Origin: Crocosphaera subtropica ATCC 51142
Lineage (GTDB): Bacteria; Cyanobacteriota; Cyanobacteriia; Cyanobacteriales; Microcystaceae
Assembly (NCBI RefSeq): GCF_000017845.1
Contig: NC_010546.1
Span: 3,570,001-3,602,000, forward strand
Direction of reading: 5' to 3'
Length of the DNA stretch: 32,000 nucleotides
A program made the position numbers and the translations under genes. Shown here in pieces: positions 2,684 through 12,421 of the stretch; position 1 is the stretch's first letter; every line of letters begins with the position of its first letter. The notes beneath the pieces are model-generated. The model was given only the letters and a program-made list of their open reading frames with translations. It did no database searches and was not told where the DNA came from.

Positions 2684-2906
2684 TTCAATATACCTTTAAA
2701 ATTCAGATTAACATCACTAAAATCATTTTTTTCAGTCCTATTAGACTATGACCCCTGTGCAAAGCTATCCCAATAGTAACGGCTTAATCTCCCTCAATAT
2801 TATTTGAATTAACTATATCAAAAAACTGGGACAGTATTTAAAATTTTAAAAAAGGTGCAAGATATGAGCCTCCCACTAGGAGCGATCACTACTAGCAACA
2901 GGTAGA

Positions 2907-2936
2907 AAGAAACACTTATTTTCCAATGTGTTTCTT
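2907..2936 (-). terminator. Candidate ffh terminator hairpin
   Basis: Perfect 9-bp stem AAGAAACAC/GTGTTTCTT with a 12-nt loop, 12 nt downstream of the ffh stop. The U-tract is weak. Confidence 0.4.
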
Positions 2937-2947
2937 AAGAGATCAAC

Positions 2948-4417
2948 CTATAAATTGCCAAACCCTTTCTTTTTCTTGTTTTTCTTGGCTTTTTTCTTTT
3001 TACCACCCCCATAACCCCGAAATCCTGGGGGTGCGCTTTGACCAAACATTCCGCCCATTCCTGGCATTCCACCGCCCATTCCTGGCATTCCGCCACCCAT
3101 TCCTGGCATCGCTGGCATTCCCCCTTGTCCCATTTGCTGCATCATCCCCCGCATACGGGTGAAATTCTTAATTAGTTTACTGACTTCTGCTTCAGGATGC
3201 CCAGAACCTTGAGCAATACGACGGCGACGACTGGGAGATTTTGCTAATATATCAGGGTTTTTCCGTTCTTCTAGGGTCATCGAACTGATCATGGCTTCGG
3301 TACGTTTGAGTTCCCCTTCTCCTTTTTCAATATCCTTGGTACTCAGTTTATTCATCCCCGGAATCATCTTTAAAATGCTGCCAAAGGACCCCATATTTTT
3401 CATTAGGCGCATTTGTTTGAGGAAGTCGTTAAAGTCGAATTTTGCTTCTAAAATCTTCGACTGCATCTGTTCGACATCGGACAGATCAATCTCTTCTTGT
3501 GCCTTTTCAACTAAGGTTAAGACATCCCCCATACTCAAAATACGGGAAGCCATGCGATCGGGATAAAAGGGTTGTAAGGCTTCGACTTTTTCCCCAACCC
3601 CCACAAATTTAATGGGTTGCCCCGATATTTGGCGTACAGACAGGGCTGCACCCCCTCTGGTGTCCCCGTCCATTTTGGTTAAAATGGCTCCTGTAACCCC
3701 AATTTGGTCGTGAAAAGTACGGGTAAGGTTAGCTGCTTCTTGTCCCGTCATAGCATCGACAACGAGCAAAGTATCATCAGGGTTAACCGCTTTTTTGACA
3801 CGGGCTAACTCTAACATCATCTCTTCGTCTATTTGCAGTCGCCCGGCGGTGTCAATAATAACCGTATCAATGCCCATTTCTTTGGCTTTTTCGACCCCTT
3901 GGGTGGCAATATCAACGGGGTTGGCCTGGTTTCCGAGTTCAAAAACAGGAACCTCTATTTGTTCGCCGAGGGTGACCAACTGATCGATCGCAGCCGGACG
4001 ATAGATATCCGTGGCTACCATCAAAGCAGTTCGTTGTTGTTTACGCAAATATAGGGCAAGTTTAGCGGTAGCGGTAGTTTTACCTGTTCCTTGTAACCCG
4101 GCCATTAAAATGACGGTGGGAGCATTTTCTGCCTGTGCTAGAGGAACGTTACTTTCCCCCATCACTTTGACTAATTCATCGTAGACAATTTTGATCAATT
4201 GTTGGCCAGGGTTGACCCCGGCGATCACTTCTGCACCGATCGCAGCTTTTTCCACATCTGCAATGAAGGTTTTAACCACTTGCAGGTTAACGTCTGCTTC
4301 TAAGAGGGCCCGACGCACCTCTTTTAAAGCATCTTGCATATTGGCTTCGGTGATCTTATCTTGACCCCGTAATTTTTTCCAAGCGTCTTCTAAGCGATCG
4401 GCGAGAGCATCAAACAT
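2948..4417 (-). CDS. ffh: Signal recognition particle protein Ffh (SRP54)
   Basis: N-domain, then G-domain motifs GLQGTGKTT, DTAGR, TKMDGD. Met/Gly-rich M-domain tail and a Lys-rich C-terminus. Confidence 0.97.
   Translation of the reverse strand: MFDALADRLEDAWKKLRGQDKITEANMQDALKEVRRALLEADVNLQVVKTFIADVEKAAIGAEVIAGVNPGQQLIKIVYDELVKVMGESNVPLAQAENAPTVILMAGLQGTGKTTATAKLALYLRKQQRTALMVATDIYRPAAIDQLVTLGEQIEVPVFELGNQANPVDIATQGVEKAKEMGIDTVIIDTAGRLQIDEEMMLELARVKKAVNPDDTLLVVDAMTGQEAANLTRTFHDQIGVTGAILTKMDGDTRGGAALSVRQISGQPIKFVGVGEKVEALQPFYPDRMASRILSMGDVLTLVEKAQEEIDLSDVEQMQSKILEAKFDFNDFLKQMRLMKNMGSFGSILKMIPGMNKLSTKDIEKGEGELKRTEAMISSMTLEERKNPDILAKSPSRRRRIAQGSGHPEAEVSKLIKNFTRMRGMMQQMGQGGMPAMPGMGGGMPGMGGGMPGMGGMFGQSAPPGFRGYGGGKKKKAKKNKKKKGFGNL
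3051..3113. repeat. In-frame 21-bp tandem repeat inside ffh (encodes GMPGMGG units)
   Basis: CCGCCCATTCCTGGCATTCCA and CCGCCCATTCCTGGCATTCCG are adjacent, followed by a degenerate third unit. Confidence 0.7.
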
Positions 4418-4427
4418 AAGGCTTTTA
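4237..4427. repeat. Direct repeat copy 1 (ffh codons 1-60 plus 10 nt of 5' UTR), part of the intact ffh
   Basis: 187/191 nt identical to 6784-6974 in the same orientation. Confidence 0.97.
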
Positions 4428-4484
4428 CTGTGTTAGATTGTTGTTCGAGTATTCTAATTGTACTAGATCGATTATGATGCTTTC

Positions 4485-4514
4485 TTTATATTTTTTTATC
4501 GCTGATAAAGCTAA
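4485..4514 (-). promoter_or_regulatory. Weak candidate promoter for intact ffh, located inside the cassette
   Basis: On the minus strand: TTAGCT (4509-4514), an 18-nt spacer, then TATAAA (4485-4490), about 70 nt upstream of the ffh ATG. Sequence match only. Confidence 0.2.
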
Positions 4515-4566
4515 TAAACTTTTATTATAATGGTACTAATCAGAAGTTTCGAGAAGGAAACTTGAC

Positions 4567-5952
4567 ATGGGTACCAAAATTACAGTTCGAGAAGCAGCTT
4601 CTATTCTAAAACTTACTGAACAGTATGTTCGGACTCTTTGTCGAAATAGGCTACTTCACTCTCAAAAGATTGGAAGAATGTGGCTTATTGAAGAAGAAAG
4701 TATGTTGCAGTATGGGCTAAGGACAGCACACTATGTTGCAGAAGATCATACAATTTACAACAATCAAAAAAGTAGACCCATTGCAATTAGCTTTTTTTCT
4801 GGAGCAATGGGTTTAGATATAGGAATAGAACAAGCAGGTTTTGATATAAAATTAGCTTGTGAAATTGATAAATATTGTCGTCAAACTATTGCCTTAAATA
4901 AGCCTAATATAGCTTTAGTTGGAGATATAAATAGTTGTTCAGCAGATGATATTCTTTCGTATGCAGGGTTAACTCGTTCGGATGATATTGATTTAATTGT
5001 TGGAGGTCCTCCTTGTCAAGCATTTAGCACCGCAGGAAAAAGAAATGGATTAAACGATAATAGAGGAAATATATTTCTCACTTACCTAACTATTATTTTT
5101 GATATTCGACCCAAATATTTTGTCATTGAAAATGTCCGTGGACTATTATCTTGTCCCCTAAAACATAGACCTCATAATATGAGAGGGACAGAGTTTCCCA
5201 ATTTAACTTTTGACGAGCTTCCAGGTGGTGCTTTAAATTTTGTCCTTAGCCTTGTGAGAAACAATGGCTATTCGTTCTCATTTAATCTGTACAACAGCGC
5301 AAATTTTGGAACACCTCAAATAAGAGAACGAGTTGTCATAATCTGTTCAAGAAATGGAGAAAAACCTCCATTTTTAATACCGACTCACTCAGAAAAGGGA
5401 CAATATGGACTTAAAAAATGGAAAACATTTAGACAAGCAACAAAAGGAATTGATAAGCATCATCACTTAACATTTCCTGAAAAGCGATTAAAGTATTACA
5501 AAATGCTTTCAGAAGGACAAAACTGGAAGTCTTTACCTAAAAATTTACAAAAAGAAGCACTAGGAAAATCTTACTATGCAGGTGGTGGAAAAACAGGTTT
5601 TCTGCGTCGACTTTCATGGAATAAACCATCTCCTACTCTAGTAACTCATCCCGCTATGCCTGCCACCGACTTAGCTCATCCACAAGAGAATAGACCTCTA
5701 TCTATCGAAGAGTATAAAAGAATACAAGAATTTCCTGATGACTGGCAATTGGCTGGCCCTCTTATTCAACAATATAAACAAATAGGGAATGCTGTACCCA
5801 TAAGTTTGGGGAAAGCAGTAGGCTTATTAATAATGAAACTTTTAAATCAGGAGAATATTCCAGATTATTCTAATTTTAGTTTTTCAAGATATAAAAATAC
5901 TAGCGATACAGAATGGCAAACCAAGTTTGAAAGTACATCTTCTAATTTATGA
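4567..5952 (+). CDS. DNA (cytosine-5)-methyltransferase with an N-terminal excisionase/MerR-type HTH domain
   Basis: C5-MTase motifs: I FSGAMGLDIG, IV GGPPCQAFS, VI ENVRGLL, VIII FGTPQIRERV, X QIGNAVP. Residues about 5-50 (ITVREAASILKLTEQYVRTLCRNRLLHSQKIGRMWLI) look like an HTH_17 domain. Confidence 0.93.
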   Translation: MGTKITVREAASILKLTEQYVRTLCRNRLLHSQKIGRMWLIEEESMLQYGLRTAHYVAEDHTIYNNQKSRPIAISFFSGAMGLDIGIEQAGFDIKLACEIDKYCRQTIALNKPNIALVGDINSCSADDILSYAGLTRSDDIDLIVGGPPCQAFSTAGKRNGLNDNRGNIFLTYLTIIFDIRPKYFVIENVRGLLSCPLKHRPHNMRGTEFPNLTFDELPGGALNFVLSLVRNNGYSFSFNLYNSANFGTPQIRERVVIICSRNGEKPPFLIPTHSEKGQYGLKKWKTFRQATKGIDKHHHLTFPEKRLKYYKMLSEGQNWKSLPKNLQKEALGKSYYAGGGKTGFLRRLSWNKPSPTLVTHPAMPATDLAHPQENRPLSIEEYKRIQEFPDDWQLAGPLIQQYKQIGNAVPISLGKAVGLLIMKLLNQENIPDYSNFSFSRYKNTSDTEWQTKFESTSSNL

Positions 5953-5986
5953 CTGTTTAAATTATATTTTTCCCACAGAGATATTA

Positions 5987-6688
5987 TTACTTTTGATAAT
6001 TTCTGTGTCTTTTTTCTTCATCTAAATATTGCCTCACAAAATTTATAAAACCTTGTTCATTCAAAGAATAACCCTGCATTGATGGTGGAAGATTATCCCA
6101 ATTAGTTTTTCCAGTTTTAGAAAATGACCGAAACCATTTTTGAATTGGAGTTCCATTCCGAATAGCACTACTCGAAGAGTTTTCTGAGTTATCTCTATTC
6201 TTTATCTGCAAGGGTAACCATGTTCCATCATCATTTCGGCGAATAAAATCAATTGCTTTGACAAAATTTCCACAACACCAATGCCAACCATTTGAGCGAA
6301 GTACCGAGTCAAGATATCTTTCCAAAAGCGCACCAACACAGTTTTCTGCACACATTGAATGTTGATGCTCAAGTTTGATTTGATTACACTGTTCTTCGCT
6401 ATATCCATAAGCCACTTGCATAACAACGCTAACGATTTCATCAGGGACTGTTTGTGGTATTGCTGGAAAATCGGACTTTCTATAACCATCAAAATATTTT
6501 TGAGCCAATATATTTAATCCTTCATCATTAAAGACAGAAGGCTTTTTTTTACCTCTCCAAGATAAAAATATTGGGTTATCTGAGAGAAAACAACATACTT
6601 CAGTAAATGATACAATTAGGCTTCTCTCATCTTCTGTTATTGCAGTATTTTCTGCAATTGTCTGAGCCATTGCTTGATTGAATTCCAC
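5987..6688 (-). CDS. Putative type II restriction endonuclease, partner of the adjacent C5-MTase
   Basis: Assigned from context only. It is tail-to-tail with the MTase (34-bp gap), within the same inserted cassette, and I can name no recognisable family. The track start is GTG at 6688, with AGAGGA upstream. An alternative ATG lies at 6670. Confidence 0.5.
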   Translation of the reverse strand: MEFNQAMAQTIAENTAITEDERSLIVSFTEVCCFLSDNPIFLSWRGKKKPSVFNDEGLNILAQKYFDGYRKSDFPAIPQTVPDEIVSVVMQVAYGYSEEQCNQIKLEHQHSMCAENCVGALLERYLDSVLRSNGWHWCCGNFVKAIDFIRRNDDGTWLPLQIKNRDNSENSSSSAIRNGTPIQKWFRSFSKTGKTNWDNLPPSMQGYSLNEQGFINFVRQYLDEEKRHRNYQK

Positions 6689-6778
6689 TTTTAAGGTGTC
6701 CTCTTGAGAAATTCGTAAAAATCAGATTACTTTAAATCATACTGATTGCACAGGGAAAAGTCTCTAGATAACGATTAA

Positions 6779-6964
6779 TTAGGCGATCGCAGCTTTTTCT
6801 ACATCTGCAATGAAGGTTTTAACCACTTGCAAGTTAACGTCTGCTTCTAAGAGGGCCCGACGCACCTCTTTTAAAGCGTCTTGCATATTGGCTTCGGTGA
6901 TCTTATCTTGACCCCGTAATTTTTTCCAAGCGTCTTCTAGGCGATCGGCGAGAGCATCAAACAT
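6779..6964 (-). pseudogene. Truncated duplicate of the ffh 5' end (codons 1-60, then A-stop)
   Basis: The first 60 residues are identical to intact Ffh. The ORF ends at the repeat/cassette junction, which coincides with a HIP1 site (GCGATCGC, 6783-6790). Confidence 0.92.
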
Positions 6965-6974
6965 AAGGCTTTTA
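6784..6974. repeat. Direct repeat copy 2 (ffh 5' fragment attached to the ancestral upstream region)
   Basis: 187/191 nt identical to 4237-4427. Confidence 0.97.
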
Positions 6975-7026
6975 AATTGTTCGGTTACTATTTAATGTTA
7001 TTTTCCTACTTCTTTCAGTTTACTTT

Positions 7027-7056
7027 ATTTTAGAACAAATCAACTAGATAATCTAG
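7027..7056 (-). promoter_or_regulatory. Candidate ancestral ffh promoter overlapped by the palindrome CTAGAT-A-ATCTAG
   Basis: On the minus strand: TAGATT (7050-7055), a 17-nt spacer, then TAAAAT (7027-7032). A 13-bp palindrome sits at 7044-7056. Sequence match only. Confidence 0.25.
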
Positions 7057-7161
7057 GGAAATGTTACGTTTAAGAAAATAGTCCCTAAACACTTAGCCAC
7101 GGGACATAAAATCTAATTAGAAGTTTAACCTATATTAATTTAACAAAAAATAGACTAATTT

Positions 7162-8124
7162 TCAATTCTTTTGAGGATAAACACCGCTTAATTTCATGAC
7201 ATCTTCAATAGTTGTGCAGTAATTATCCATGCCAAAGGTTGCAGGGGTGACGGTATCTTTATAAGTAAAATGTCGATAATTAATAGAAAAATAGTCCCAG
7301 TCTTCCATGCGTAAACGAAAGGCTTTAATAAAGAAGTTGATTAAGAAAATATACAAAGGAATGCGAAAATAAATTCTTTTATTGAGATAGTCACAAATCT
7401 TTTCTATGGCTTCGTTAACCGTTGTTTTTTGATTCCCTAAAACTAAATTCTTATTCTCTGATTCAGTGGGAGGATTTTCCACTAAATATTTAATGATTTT
7501 AGCGATATCTCTAGCATGAATATAATGAAAACTTCCATCAGCTTTAAACCAACGAATGAGATCAATCCATCTAATTACATCTTTAATGCCACCTGAGAGA
7601 TGAGAATAGGGTTTATTGAATTCACCACCGAAGACTAATGTAGGGAATACTGTAGTAATTTTATTATAAAATGGTAGATTGTTTAACTGAGTAAAACATT
7701 GATATTTTGTTCTTATATAATTCGTTCCTAATGTTCCTGCTTCGGGTAAAGGCTGATTATTTTGATCTAAAATACTGGCGGTAGAAAAGTAAATAATTTG
7801 TTCACAAACTTCGGGATCTAATAGTTTCATTAATCCGATTGTTTTGGTGACATTAATTTCAAAAGATTCATTAATTCCACCCCAACTGGTCGCAGCTAAA
7901 ATAGCAACATTAACTGTCTTCAAAAAGTCACTAAATTTTTCAAGATTTTGTAAATCGCCAATGATAAGATGAACATTGGGCCGACTTTGATAATGAAACT
8001 GTAGTTTCTCAGGATTCCTGACTAAAAAATAAAGTTCATGATCGGTTTCTTGGATCAAAGCTTCTGCCATATAATGACCAATACAACCGCTAGAGCCTGT
8101 AATAAAAATACGCTTCATTAACAC
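7162..8124 (-). CDS. NAD(P)-dependent epimerase/dehydratase family (extended SDR) protein
   Basis: N-terminal Rossmann motif ITGSSGCIGHY. Length and layout are typical of extended SDRs. Confidence 0.75.
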   Translation of the reverse strand: MLMKRIFITGSSGCIGHYMAEALIQETDHELYFLVRNPEKLQFHYQSRPNVHLIIGDLQNLEKFSDFLKTVNVAILAATSWGGINESFEINVTKTIGLMKLLDPEVCEQIIYFSTASILDQNNQPLPEAGTLGTNYIRTKYQCFTQLNNLPFYNKITTVFPTLVFGGEFNKPYSHLSGGIKDVIRWIDLIRWFKADGSFHYIHARDIAKIIKYLVENPPTESENKNLVLGNQKTTVNEAIEKICDYLNKRIYFRIPLYIFLINFFIKAFRLRMEDWDYFSINYRHFTYKDTVTPATFGMDNYCTTIEDVMKLSGVYPQKN

Positions 8125-8381: not shown

Positions 8382-9452
8382 TTAACTGATCACTGTAGCC
8401 TTACCACTGGCTAAGGTTAAAGGAAAGTGATGAGTATTCGGAGCGTGCATCGAACGAATTCCTAGATTAGCACGATTGAGAAGATCCGCTTCTGTGGGAA
8501 TTGTTCTACCTTGACTATCAAGAATGGATTGATTAAAGTTAAACCCGTTTAAATTGAAAGCCATCACGCTAATTGCAGCCGATGCACACCAAATTCCTAC
8601 CACTGGAATGGATGCTAACAGAAAATGAACGGAACGGCTATTTTTGAAGCCCAAGCTAGGGATGAGAAGACGGCCTAAATAGCCTAGATGTCCAGCAACC
8701 AGATTATAAGTGGCCTCTTGTTGACCAAAATGGTATCCTTGATTGATTGATTCACGGACAGTTGTTTCCCGTATGAGACTAGAAGTCACTAAAGAACCGT
8801 GTAACGCAGCTAAAACCGCTCCAGTAAAGATACCTGCAACCCCTAACATATGCAATGGGTGCATCAAAATATTATGGTCAGCTTGAAACGCTAACATAAA
8901 GTGAAACGTGCCACTAATACCTAACGGCATTCCTTCGGAAAAACTGCCTTGTCCCAGAGGATAAACGAGAAAGATAGAAGTAGCAGCAGCTACAGGGGCA
9001 GAAAAAGCGACGGAAATCCAAGGCCGCATTCCTAATCGATAACTTAATTCCCATAAACGCCCTAAATAGCACCAAATCCCGATTAAAAAGTGACAAATGA
9101 TCAATTGATAAGGTCCCCCATTATAGAGCCATTCATCAATCGAAGCAGCTTCCCAGATGGGATAAAAATGTAATCCAATGGCAGCCGAAGTTGGGATCAC
9201 AGCAGCACTGATGAGGTTATTACCCCCCAAGAGGGAACCAATAATCGGTTCTCTGATTCCTTCCATATCAACTGGGGGAGCCACCAAAAAAGCCAGAATA
9301 AAACTAATGGTAGCCACTAGCAGTGTTGGGATCATTAAGACTCCAAACCAACCAATGTAAAGGCGTTGATTGGTACTGGTGATCCATTCACAAAAGTTTG
9401 ACCACAGTTGACCGAAATCGAGTTCTTTTTGGCGAGGAAATACATTGGTCAT
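8382..9452 (-). CDS. psbA: Divergent photosystem II D1 paralogue (rogue/sentinel D1 type)
   Basis: Collinear with D1 over its full length ([69 protein letters not shown]). Mn-cluster ligand positions are substituted. Strong SD (TAGGAGGA) upstream. Confidence 0.9.
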
Positions 9453-10580: not shown

Positions 10581-11061
10581 ATGCCTAAACAAGCTTTCAT
10601 TGCTCCTCATTTAAGTACAGAAGAACTTAAAGAAAAATATCGCAAGGCGAAAGACTCAGTAGAAGCTAGAAGGTGGCACTTTTTGTGGAAAGTTGCTAAT
10701 GGTTGGACAGTCAAAAATAGTGCCATAGCCGTAGGAATTAGTAATAGTTATGGATGGAAAATTTTAAAAAGCTATAACGGAAAAGGAATTGAAGGAGTGA
10801 ATAATGAAAAGAAAGAACGTCAAGAACATTCAAGAGGATTTATCCCCTTATTGAATGATGAACAATTTCAAAAACTAACAAAAGTAATTAAAAAGAAATC
10901 CCCTGATGGTGGATTATGGACAGGTCCGAAGGTAGCACGGTGGATAGAAAAAGAAACAGGAAGAAAAAAAGTTTGGAATCAAAGGGGGTGGGATTATTTA
11001 AAAAAGCTCAAATATTCCTGGCAGAAACCGAGACCGAAACATAGAAAAGGTGATAGTATAG
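10581..11061 (+). pseudogene. IS630-family transposase, N-terminal HTH part only, truncated by the ISAs1 insertion
   Basis: HTH/winged-helix region typical of IS630 ORFs (LWTGPKVARWIEKETGRKKVWNQRGWDYLKKLKYSWQKPRPKH). No DDE domain. The reading frame runs into the IS left inverted repeat and stops at its TAA. Confidence 0.75.
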
Positions 11062-12421
11062 CAGGGTAAGCTCATCTAAAATGGTATAAAATGTACTTGA
11101 CTAAGAAAGTAAAGTCTAGGTGAGGCAAAAAGGGACTTAAAATAAAAAAACAAAGTACAATTAGGACTTTCGTAATTATGGAATCAGAACATGGCCAAGG
11201 GGTTTGCAGACCAAAAACAATCTAGTAAGAAAAAAAAGGAAAAGGGAAATATAGCATCTATTGATGAAATCCAAAACAATTTATTAGGCTATGTCAAAGA
11301 AATAGAAGATCCTAGAGTACAAAGAAGCAAAAAACACCTCCTTAAAGATGTATTGGCGATCGCTATATTGGCAGTCATTGCAGGGTCCCAAGGTTGGGAA
11401 GATATGGAGAACTATGGTATCGCAAAACAGGAGTGGTTATCAGAGTTTCTAGAACTCCCTCACGGAATCCCGAGTGATGACACATTTAGAAGAGTTTTTG
11501 AGAGAATTGATCCAGAATCGCTGCAAAAATGCCTACAAAAATGGGTTCAATCTATAATGAATTCAATTCAAGGAGAAATTATCCCCATCGATGGCAAAAC
11601 ATTAAGGGGTTCTTACGATCGCAACGCCGGACAGTGCGCTTTATATACGGTCACAGCGTGGGCATCCCAGCAGAGTCTGGTGTTAGGACAAGTCAAAGTT
11701 GAAAACTACTCCAATGAAATTACGGCCATTCCTGCCTTACTCGAACTATTAGACATTACAGGCTCGATCATTACCATTGATGCAATGGGAACTCAAACCA
11801 GCATTATCCAACAAATTTGTCGGCAAAAAGCTGACTACATTGTTACTCTCAAAGCTAACCATCCTACTTTATTTTCTCAAGTCAAGCAATGGTTTACTGA
11901 TACCCAAAACAATGGCTGGGATGGCATTGAACATGATTACTACAAAAGTGTAACCAAGGGCCACCACCGCACCGAGAAACGATACGTTTGGGCTATACCA
12001 GTAGCAGCTATGGGAGAGCTTTACCAGCAACAACAATGGCATGGACTGCAAACTATTGTCGTAGTCGAACGCATCCGTCACTTGTGGAACAAGACTACCC
12101 ACGATATTCAGTTTTATCTGACCTCTTTACCTCCCAATGCCCAATTCCTTTGCCATGCGATCCGCACCCATTGGAGCATTGAGAATAACCTTCATTGGAC
12201 ACTCGATGTCACTTTTTCTGAAGATCAATGCCGTATTCGGTCAGAATATAGTCCACAGAACTTTGCTCTTCTAAGACGATTGGCTCTTAATGTTCTCCAT
12301 CAAGAAAAAACATTTAAACGTAGTCTTCGCCAGAAAATGAAGCAAGCTGCTATGAACAACAACTATATGATGACTGTTCTCAATTCCTTCTGTCAAGCGG
12401 ATTTTAGATGAGCTTACCCTG
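11062..12421 (+). mobile_element. ISAs1-family insertion sequence, 1360 bp, apparently intact
   Basis: Perfect 21-bp terminal inverted repeats CAGGGTAAGCTCATCTAAAAT (11062-11082 and, as reverse complement, 12401-12421) enclose a single transposase ORF. Confidence 0.9.
11191..12411 (+). CDS. ISAs1-family (H-repeat-associated) transposase
   Basis: The N-terminal motif DPRVQRSKKHLLKDVLAIAILAVIAGSQGWEDMENYG is the DDE_Tnp_1-associated domain. A DDE core follows (IPIDGKTLRGS, ITIDAMGTQ, HWSIENNLHW). Confidence 0.9.
   Translation: MAKGFADQKQSSKKKKEKGNIASIDEIQNNLLGYVKEIEDPRVQRSKKHLLKDVLAIAILAVIAGSQGWEDMENYGIAKQEWLSEFLELPHGIPSDDTFRRVFERIDPESLQKCLQKWVQSIMNSIQGEIIPIDGKTLRGSYDRNAGQCALYTVTAWASQQSLVLGQVKVENYSNEITAIPALLELLDITGSIITIDAMGTQTSIIQQICRQKADYIVTLKANHPTLFSQVKQWFTDTQNNGWDGIEHDYYKSVTKGHHRTEKRYVWAIPVAAMGELYQQQQWHGLQTIVVVERIRHLWNKTTHDIQFYLTSLPPNAQFLCHAIRTHWSIENNLHWTLDVTFSEDQCRIRSEYSPQNFALLRRLALNVLHQEKTFKRSLRQKMKQAAMNNNYMMTVLNSFCQADFR

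Follow-up and report, generated by a model that had tools for sequence, protein, structure and literature searches.

The stretch of DNA analyzed here, to be referred to as the window, covers 32,000 nt of the genome of Crocosphaera subtropica ATCC 51142. Coordinates are positions in this window, and the genomes and loci compared with it carry L numbers. The window contains a restriction-modification (R-M) cassette at the 5′ end of ffh, the gene for an SRP54 homologue. On the minus strand, the list of open reading frames (ORFs) and the sequence give the order epimerase gene, intergenic region, ffh stub, endonuclease gene (R), convergent methyltransferase gene (M), and intact ffh. The first of these encodes an NAD-dependent epimerase/dehydratase by Pfam (7162–8124, minus strand) and is syntenic with L008, L009, L005 and L096; as judged from this synteny, it is the ancestral upstream neighbour of ffh. 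An intergenic region of 197 nt separates it from the stub, an ORF of 61 codons (6779–6964, minus strand) whose first 60 codons are identical in protein sequence to intact Ffh and which gives a partial match to SRP54_N. The stub is followed by a 90-nt gap and then by R. At the other end, 149 nt of non-coding DNA lie between M and intact ffh (2948–4417, minus strand). Intact ffh encodes a protein of 489 aa with the SRP54_N, SRP54 and SRP_SPB domains, which shows 95–99% amino-acid identity to Crocosphaera Ffh. A scan of GTDB genomes with Ffh assigns the window to the Crocosphaera/Cyanothece clade. The same gene order and coordinates had been given in an earlier note on this DNA, and they are borne out by the ORF list, by Pfam, by contigs of the Logan collection and by the genome of C. 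chwakensis CCY0110.

R (5987–6688, minus strand) has a GTG start codon and encodes a SinI-family Type II restriction endonuclease of 233 aa. It matches PF09570 (RE_SinI) in Pfam from position 1 to 218 of the 218 profile positions, with an E value of 1.3e-133, and many of its 1095 homologues are labelled as SinI family. M (4567–5952, plus strand) encodes a C5 cytosine methyltransferase of 461 aa. Its catalytic domain begins at residue 74 (PF00145, DNA_methylase, E value 4.4e-59) and is preceded by a helix-turn-helix (HTH) domain, HTH_17, at residues 6–49 (E value 8e-8; both from Pfam). M also matches NCBIfam dcm/TIGR00675. R and M are the sole ORFs of an insert of about 2.3 kb (4484–6783), within which the ORF list and Pfam reveal no integrase or transposase ORF. 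By family the cassette is a SinI/AvaII-type Type II R-M system, with GGWCC as its predicted recognition sequence and with predicted activity. The window contains 21 GGWCC sites, compared to 30 expected from base composition, a weak depletion that is uninformative on R-M activity.

The cassette is flanked by a long direct repeat of host DNA. Copy A (4237–4427) runs from −10 to +181 of intact ffh and is the high-identity part of the target duplication, and copy B (6784–6974) contains the same segment at the stub, from +181 to −10. The two copies are 191 bp in length, are in exact register and are 98% identical, far beyond chance, and their four differences are all synonymous. The homology between them reaches about 250 bp once a diverged block further upstream is included. 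On this alignment, the target duplication is about 250 bp and extends from −62/−75 to +181/+193 relative to the ffh ATG. It probably spans the ffh core promoter, the 5′ untranslated region (5′UTR) and the start of the gene (to codon 60–64). Because the probable core promoter is included in the duplication, the locus would have two copies of it.

The empty site is found in Cyanothece sp. BG0011 (L008) and in Crocosphaera MO_167.B6 (L009), where the epimerase gene and the intergenic region lead straight into an uninterrupted ffh. As the synteny in these two genomes runs unbroken from the epimerase gene into ffh, it is the stub and not the intact gene that adjoins the ancestral upstream region, as the earlier note had also proposed. 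The stub and its junctions could in principle come from a misjoined repeat, as short-read assemblies break here and both the CCY0110 contig and Logan contigs end inside the repeat. However, independent Logan contigs from four sequencing runs match the window at 100% identity across 6830..4398, a segment that spans both junctions, so that the structure is not an artefact of assembly. Moreover, CCY0110 independently shows the 3′ end of the stub, R, M, the block upstream of ffh and ffh itself, and the two repeat copies differ at four sites and have different flanks. An assembly error is therefore extremely improbable.

The origin of the repeat copies was also considered. Sliding-window identity along ffh, examined for mosaicism, is uninformative, as the first 180 nt of the gene are near-invariant across the clade, and the four nucleotide differences between the stub and the intact copy are too few sites to decide on a donor lineage. 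The intact copy has T87, C133 and G165 in common with MO_188.B44 (L006), and it differs from that genome at six other nearby sites.

The 56 bp directly preceding the duplicated segment of intact ffh (4428–4483, minus strand; to be referred to as U2) constitute a native-type ffh upstream block and the diverged part of the duplication. By BLAST and in alignments, U2 matches ffh upstream DNA in L006, L007, L011, L096 and L085. Homologous DNA makes up the 60–75 nt next to ffh on its upstream side in eight further genomes of Crocosphaera, namely CCY0110, SU3, MO_188.B44, MO_199.B6, MO_167.B6, Alani8, XPORK-15E and the Logan assembly L096. The DNA beyond the block contains at least five different upstream neighbours among these genomes: the epimerase gene directly, a gene for a protein of 863–952 aa (L006 and L007), an anti-sigma-like gene (L011), a divergent gene of 215 aa (L012), an Ada-like gene (L005), and a Phd/YoeB toxin-antitoxin pair (L096). 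The homology between genomes upstream of ffh always ends at about −75. As no other cis sequence remains linked to ffh, the native ffh promoter should lie within the block. An Rfam scan of 2700–7400 gave no credible RNA family, and the conserved block is therefore not a known riboswitch or leader.

A putative −10 element of ffh, TACAAT, is located within U2 (4462–4457, minus strand), at −45 to −40 from the ATG and inside the conserved sequence ATCTAGTACAATTA (4455–4468). We infer this and the other promoters described here from the DNA sequence. The T, A, A and T of the motif TAnAnT are invariant in all 11 aligned ffh upstream regions. Nine of the 11 have TACAAT, and the stub copy in the window and BG0011 have TAAACT; the two hexamers differ solely at the degenerate positions of the −10 box. 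In the spheroid-body genomes L013, L016 and L017, TACAAT or TAGAAT is found at a similar distance from ffh. The intact copy in the window has a 13-nt deletion inside the 5′UTR compared to its relatives.

The corresponding block upstream of the stub (U1; 6975–7039, minus strand) is orthologous to the only ffh upstream region of BG0011 and has the −10-like hexamer TAAACT at 7022–7017. Its identity to the BG0011 sequence is 93.3%, and that of U1 together with the intergenic region is 94.4% (overall range 93–95%), compared to 86.8% for the adjacent epimerase gene. R thus comes after the ancestral ffh upstream region, as had been claimed, and after a stub whose translation start is intact. Between the epimerase gene and U1, a hairpin of the form GTCCC...GGGAC is followed by a T-rich run (7105–7081, minus strand). 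It folds in the window, in L008 (L008:5859-5884, with the T-run) and in L009 (L009:1508-1536, likewise). The hairpin in the window is weak (z = −0.7), and that in L009 is the strongest (z = −2.05) and has different stem bases. The hairpin is probably the terminator of the epimerase gene, and as it is terminator-like and located after that gene, the ffh promoter would be confined to the last ~100 nt.

These observations bear directly on a second claim of the earlier note, that positions 4428–4566 form a 139-bp cassette end. Only ~4484–4566 is cassette or junction DNA, and that part of the claim holds; 4428–4483 is ffh-type upstream DNA belonging to the duplicated target. The mislabelled segment underlies the further claim that ffh depends on the cassette. 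According to the model proposed there, the sole ffh promoter stayed with the stub and drives R, and intact ffh must be transcribed from a cassette promoter or by 2.5 kb of read-through antisense to M. Several features are compatible with the model, including the position of the stub next to the ancestral intergenic region, the lack of a strong terminator between R and M, the location of the −35 position of the U2 hexamer in junction DNA, and a minus-strand promoter-like site (4552–4524) that faces ffh, agrees with the consensus at 10 of 12 positions, overlaps the −10 element of M and is kept in CCY0110. However, intact ffh retains 56–62 nt of native-type upstream DNA with the invariant TAnAnT, located where a −10 box would be expected. 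This conserved block is linked to ffh, is not part of the cassette, and is the only upstream sequence common to ffh across at least five contexts, which places the native promoter inside it. In addition, promoters further away are excluded by the terminator-like hairpin that precedes the block. We therefore regard this model as unlikely.

The same model had included a form of host entrenchment, in which expression of ffh is tied to the cassette. Homologous recombination between the 191-bp direct repeats could instead remove the cassette precisely and without a scar. This recombination would leave U1 joined to ffh, which is the arrangement in BG0011, and as a result the geometry of the locus adds nothing to ordinary post-segregational addiction. 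The dependence of an essential gene on selfish DNA is not supported. Host dependence on the DNA of an element had also been put forward as an undescribed idea, and it already has experimentally documented cases, the dusA islands and SXT in prfC (PMC8409611).

The best explanation for the locus is that a 2.3-kb SinI/AvaII-family cassette without a mobility gene would have entered the 5′ end of ffh by insertion with long target duplication, that the promoter was copied in the process, and that ffh retains a native-type promoter. We assign this explanation as a whole a probability of roughly 0.7. The inner copy, U2 with TACAAT, would still drive intact ffh, and from its conservation it is most likely still the promoter of this gene. 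The core promoter of ffh would be unchanged and only its context altered, as junction and cassette DNA now take the place of the sequence further out than about −62, and the divergent M promoter is 64 nt away. The outer copy, U1 with TAAACT, would transcribe the 61-codon stub and continue into R, besides the input from the leader of R itself.

Several points weigh against this explanation. A conserved −35 element accompanying TAnAnT is not seen in the aligned ffh upstream regions. For the intact copy the −35 position is on junction DNA, so that the strength of this promoter could rest on DNA from the cassette side. The minus-strand site at 4552–4524 (TCGAAA-17-TATAAT) lies inside the cassette and could add to the transcription of ffh. 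The promoter scan gave 12 sites compared to 12.1 in shuffled sequence, and single matches weigh little. A literature search on the ffh locus of Crocosphaera/Cyanothece found no transcription start, RNA sequencing or reporter data. The U1 region of CCY0110 was not recovered in a search for the epimerase gene or among cluster members, as the contig ends inside the stub. Finally, the window and CCY0110 have different junctions at either end of the cassette and different U2 alleles, which is not accounted for by one simple transfer of a block.

The differences at the junctions are well defined. On the M side, a filler (4484–4521) is unique to ATCC 51142 and covers the −35 regions of both M and ffh. 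The identity between the window and CCY0110 collapses in this segment, with both flanks about 97% identical, and 20–37 nt differ between the two genomes on this side. On the R side, a 12-nt filler, CCTAATTAATCG (6772–6783, minus strand), supplies the stop codon of the stub (TAA, 6779–6781) and converts GCGATCGG into the HIP1 octamer GCGATCGC (6783–6790), one of 12 HIP1 copies in the window. CCY0110 does not have this filler, and the ffh sequence GTGCAGAAG continues there to about +193.

CCY0110 has the closest homologue of R, with 97% amino-acid identity, and represents a second occurrence of the cassette. Its contig starts inside the stub, after which come R, the convergent M, a block of the U2 type and an intact ffh; site and orientation are those of the window. 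The nucleotide identity between the two genomes is 98.0% for R, 97.1% for M and 91.1% for ffh beyond +181. For R and M, the divergence at synonymous sites (dS, Nei-Gojobori) is 0.05 and 0.085, respectively; for ffh it is 0.14 in codons 1–60 and 0.475 from codon 61 to the end. R plus M differ from ffh in synonymous divergence with high significance (Fisher's test, p = 1e-21). The ratio of nonsynonymous to synonymous divergence (dN/dS) is about 0.24 for R and about 0.17 for M, which indicates that both genes are under purifying selection.

As the dS of R and M is far below that of ffh, the cassette has spread horizontally, long after the two lineages split. A single insertion in the common ancestor of ATCC 51142 and CCY0110, with BG0011 and the others having lost the cassette or never had it, would account for the same site, the same orientation and the near-same junctions in both genomes. 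BG0011 also has a U1-type promoter before intact ffh, as recombination between the repeats would leave. However, vertical inheritance is quite improbable, as the dS of R and M is 6–9 times lower than that of the adjacent ffh, and co-divergence would need gene conversion between species, which is itself horizontal transfer.

Four of ~39 synonymous sites differ between the stub and the intact copy, which is like the divergence of the cassette and below that of ffh (p = 0.0016). As this divergence resembles that of the cassette, the repeats plausibly travel with it. The cassette, probably together with its flanking repeats, moved between Crocosphaera lineages, and we infer homologous recombination at the conserved 5′ region of ffh as the likeliest route. 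A further, doubtful suggestion is that the mobile unit makes use of the duplicated ffh segment, both as a highly conserved homology arm for homing to the 5′ end of ffh in other Crocosphaera species and as a constitutive housekeeping promoter that feeds R. Such a homing arm would explain why dS in the cassette is 6–9 times below that of ffh at the same site in two species. If this suggestion were true, addiction-type modules in general would land preferentially at the upstream boundary of ffh; other lineages have a Phd/YoeB pair and an Ada-like gene at this position.

The expression of R may have two sources. The leader of R is cassette-borne and contains 83 nt (6689–6771, minus strand), with a −10-like TATGAT (6736–6741) and the Shine-Dalgarno sequence AAGAGGA (6699–6705). 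It is identical to that of CCY0110 at 79 of 83 positions (95%). There is no recognisable −35 element in this leader, and it failed the promoter scan. No similarity was found to the leader in L086 or in other SinI-family loci, so that a cassette-borne R promoter is not demonstrable by conservation in the family. A search of the DNA separating the stub from R gave no terminator or significant RNA fold, which makes it plausible, on sequence grounds, that transcription from the stub promoter continues into R. Between R and M, likewise, there is no convincing terminator.

It is possible instead, though clearly the weaker option, that the duplicated ffh segment is a neutral by-product of the insertion. 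R would then be expressed only from its own 83-nt leader, with TATGAT at 6736–6741, the stub promoter would contribute weak, attenuated or irrelevant transcription, and the duplicated ffh would be an insertion scar without a part in regulation. Other SinI-family R genes have non-coding DNA upstream (for example, a 139-nt gap in L086) in contexts without ffh, and −10-like hexamers are located upstream of R in several of these loci. The leader is 95% conserved between the two Crocosphaera genomes, and the weak TTG or GTG start codons of most R genes in the family point to self-contained expression at a low level. On the other hand, no terminator or structure separates the stub from R, and the leader has no recognisable −35 element and failed the scan. 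In addition, the higher identity of U1 and the intergenic region to BG0011 (94.4%) compared to the epimerase gene (86.8%) suggests that U1 is still constrained. If the housekeeping promoter does feed R, as read-through from U1 would imply, this would be relevant to the way in which R-M systems that are new to a host adjust the balance of R to M.

A comparison was made with ten other SinI-family loci, with 54–71% identity in R, plus one at 44%. In 10 of 10 of the other SinI-family loci, R and M are convergent, and none of these loci lies close to ffh. A scan of metagenomes with R gave nine distant homologues (67% identity at most), none beside ffh. The start codon of R is TTG or GTG in nine of the 11 loci compared, which is consistent with deliberately weak translation of the endonuclease; L094 has an ATG, and in L089 the start is uncertain. 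The N-terminus of M with its HTH is present in all seven loci in which the 5′ end of M is on the contig. The tblastn matches begin at residue 1 of the query in six loci and at residue 5 in L095.

The promoter and leader of M are also conserved in the family. In the window (4522–4566, plus strand), the −10 element TATAAT (4526–4531), predicted by the promoter scan, is followed by GGTACT (4532–4537), and in the leader (4532–4566) the sequence GTTTCG-N4-GGAAAC (4546–4561) overlaps the ribosome-binding site. The upstream architecture of M is kept in seven of the seven loci examined (the window, CCY0110 and five of the ten SinI-family loci). It consists of a TATAAT-like −10 element, GGTAC(T/C), about 9 nt, (G/A)TTTCG-N4-GGAAA(C/T) over the ribosome-binding site, and the ATG followed by nGTACC. 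This conservation argues that the M promoter is cassette-borne. It is arranged back-to-back with the putative −10 element of ffh, at a distance of 64 nt in the window and about 30 nt in CCY0110.

The M leader contains nested inverted repeats (window 4526–4575; L085–L090), in which the GGTAC(T/C) after the −10 element pairs with the GTACC in codons 2–3 of M. Codon 2 is AGT, GGT or CGT, and the invariance of its GT suggests that the nucleotide sequence itself is constrained. The inverted repeats could equally well be a putative operator for the HTH of M or an RNA hairpin that masks the start codon. A literature search on autoregulation of the SinI methyltransferase found nothing relevant.

Insertions recur in the gap that separates the epimerase gene from the ffh promoter block (window 6965–7161; L005:4755-5937; L096:3197-3912). 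In SU3 it contains an Ada-like gene of 291 aa (AraC HTH and O6-methylguanine methyltransferase), in the Logan Crocosphaera assembly L096 a Phd/YefM antitoxin gene and a YoeB-like toxin gene, and in ATCC 51142 and CCY0110 the R-M cassette. All these inserts stop just upstream of the block, at about −75. The epimerase gene does not adjoin ffh in L097–L101. The BG0011 unitig has one extra A in an A-run at codon 13 of ffh (L008:6036-6042), which would shift the reading frame of the gene and is most likely a homopolymer sequencing error.

At its 3′ end, intact ffh contains an imperfect tandem repeat of 21–30 nt (3042–3124), which encodes the Gly/Met/Pro-rich C-terminal tail of Ffh (GGMPGMGGGMPGMGG...). 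Such tails are ordinary among the M-domains of cyanobacterial SRP54. Synteny breaks directly after the stop codon of ffh. CCY0110, SU3, BG0011 and other genomes share their downstream genes (isoamylase and others), and positions 1–2940 of the window instead contain a Cys-rich ORF of 113 aa (2342–2683), TauE (1382–2164), a rhodanese (835–1374) and a protein with the metallo-beta-lactamase fold (97–795). On the other side, mobile-element debris is located 3.5 kb from the cassette (10581–12411), where the GC skew is strongly positive. It includes a 162-aa protein with IS630-like HTH domains (HTH_23 and HTH_33; 10581–11069) and a 406-aa DDE_Tnp_1 transposase with a DDE_Tnp_1_assoc domain (11191–12411). 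Two genes upstream of the epimerase gene is a Photo_RC protein of 356 aa (D1/psbA-like; 8382–9452), the sequence of which looks divergent. We assume that it may be an atypical D1 copy, as known from nitrogen-fixing unicellular cyanobacteria.

The cassette can be compared with four known systems. It resembles the GGWCC systems SinI of Salmonella infantis and AvaII of Anabaena in that R matches RE_SinI end to end and has a C5 methyltransferase of 461 aa as its partner. The SinI family is common in cyanobacteria.

In M.SsoII and M.Ecl18kI, the N-terminal HTH region of the C5 methyltransferase regulates transcription of its own R-M system (PMC3978073, PMC2760811). M likewise has an extra N-terminal domain of about 70 residues with an HTH, and the conserved inverted repeat in its promoter and leader is a possible operator. 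However, R and M are convergent in the ffh-locus cassette, without a shared operator region, and the M promoter is divergent from ffh instead.

Elements at the 5′ end of a host gene that supply its promoter have been shown experimentally for the dusA islands and for SXT in prfC (PMC8409611). As at ffh, a mobile element is located at the 5′ end of a housekeeping gene that stays expressed. There are two differences, however. These elements integrate by means of a tyrosine integrase and a short att site, whereas the ffh cassette has no integrase and is flanked by repeats of 191–250 bp. They also replace the promoter and N-terminus of the host gene, whereas at ffh both are host-type duplicates, with a native N-terminus and 56–62 nt of native upstream DNA.

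The closest comparison is with insertion with long target duplication, the class defined by Nobusato et al. 2000 (Gene 259:99) and surveyed by Furuta, Abe & Kobayashi 2010 (PMC2853133). The class includes Type II systems, has repeats of 46–423 bp, and has a cyanobacterial case in Microcystis (PMC2853133). The insert at ffh is similar in every feature used in the 2010 survey. It contains homologues of both R and M (RE_SinI and DNA_methylase), it is small (about 2.3 kb, within the limit of 20 kb) and has no integrase, transposase or other mobility gene, its flanking direct repeats of host DNA are longer than 30 bp (191 bp), and these align to a single uninterrupted copy at the empty site in BG0011 and MO_167.B6. 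By these features of its sequence, the locus is a new example of the class. It differs from the class in that the target takes in the probable core promoter, the 5′UTR and codons 1–60 of an essential gene, that one promoter copy faces R, that the upstream block is present as different alleles in the two repeat copies, and that the dS values show movement of the cassette between species at the same locus. With its empty site, a second occupied species and the contrast in molecular clocks, the locus provides a clean cyanobacterial case of an R-M pair behaving as a mobile element without a recombinase. With a promoter inside the duplicated target, one copy would face the cassette and the other would be kept by the host gene. 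This consequence is undiscussed in the literature on the class, and promoters have no occurrence in the 2010 paper (PMC2853133). It is a small addition to a known class, and not a new kind of system.

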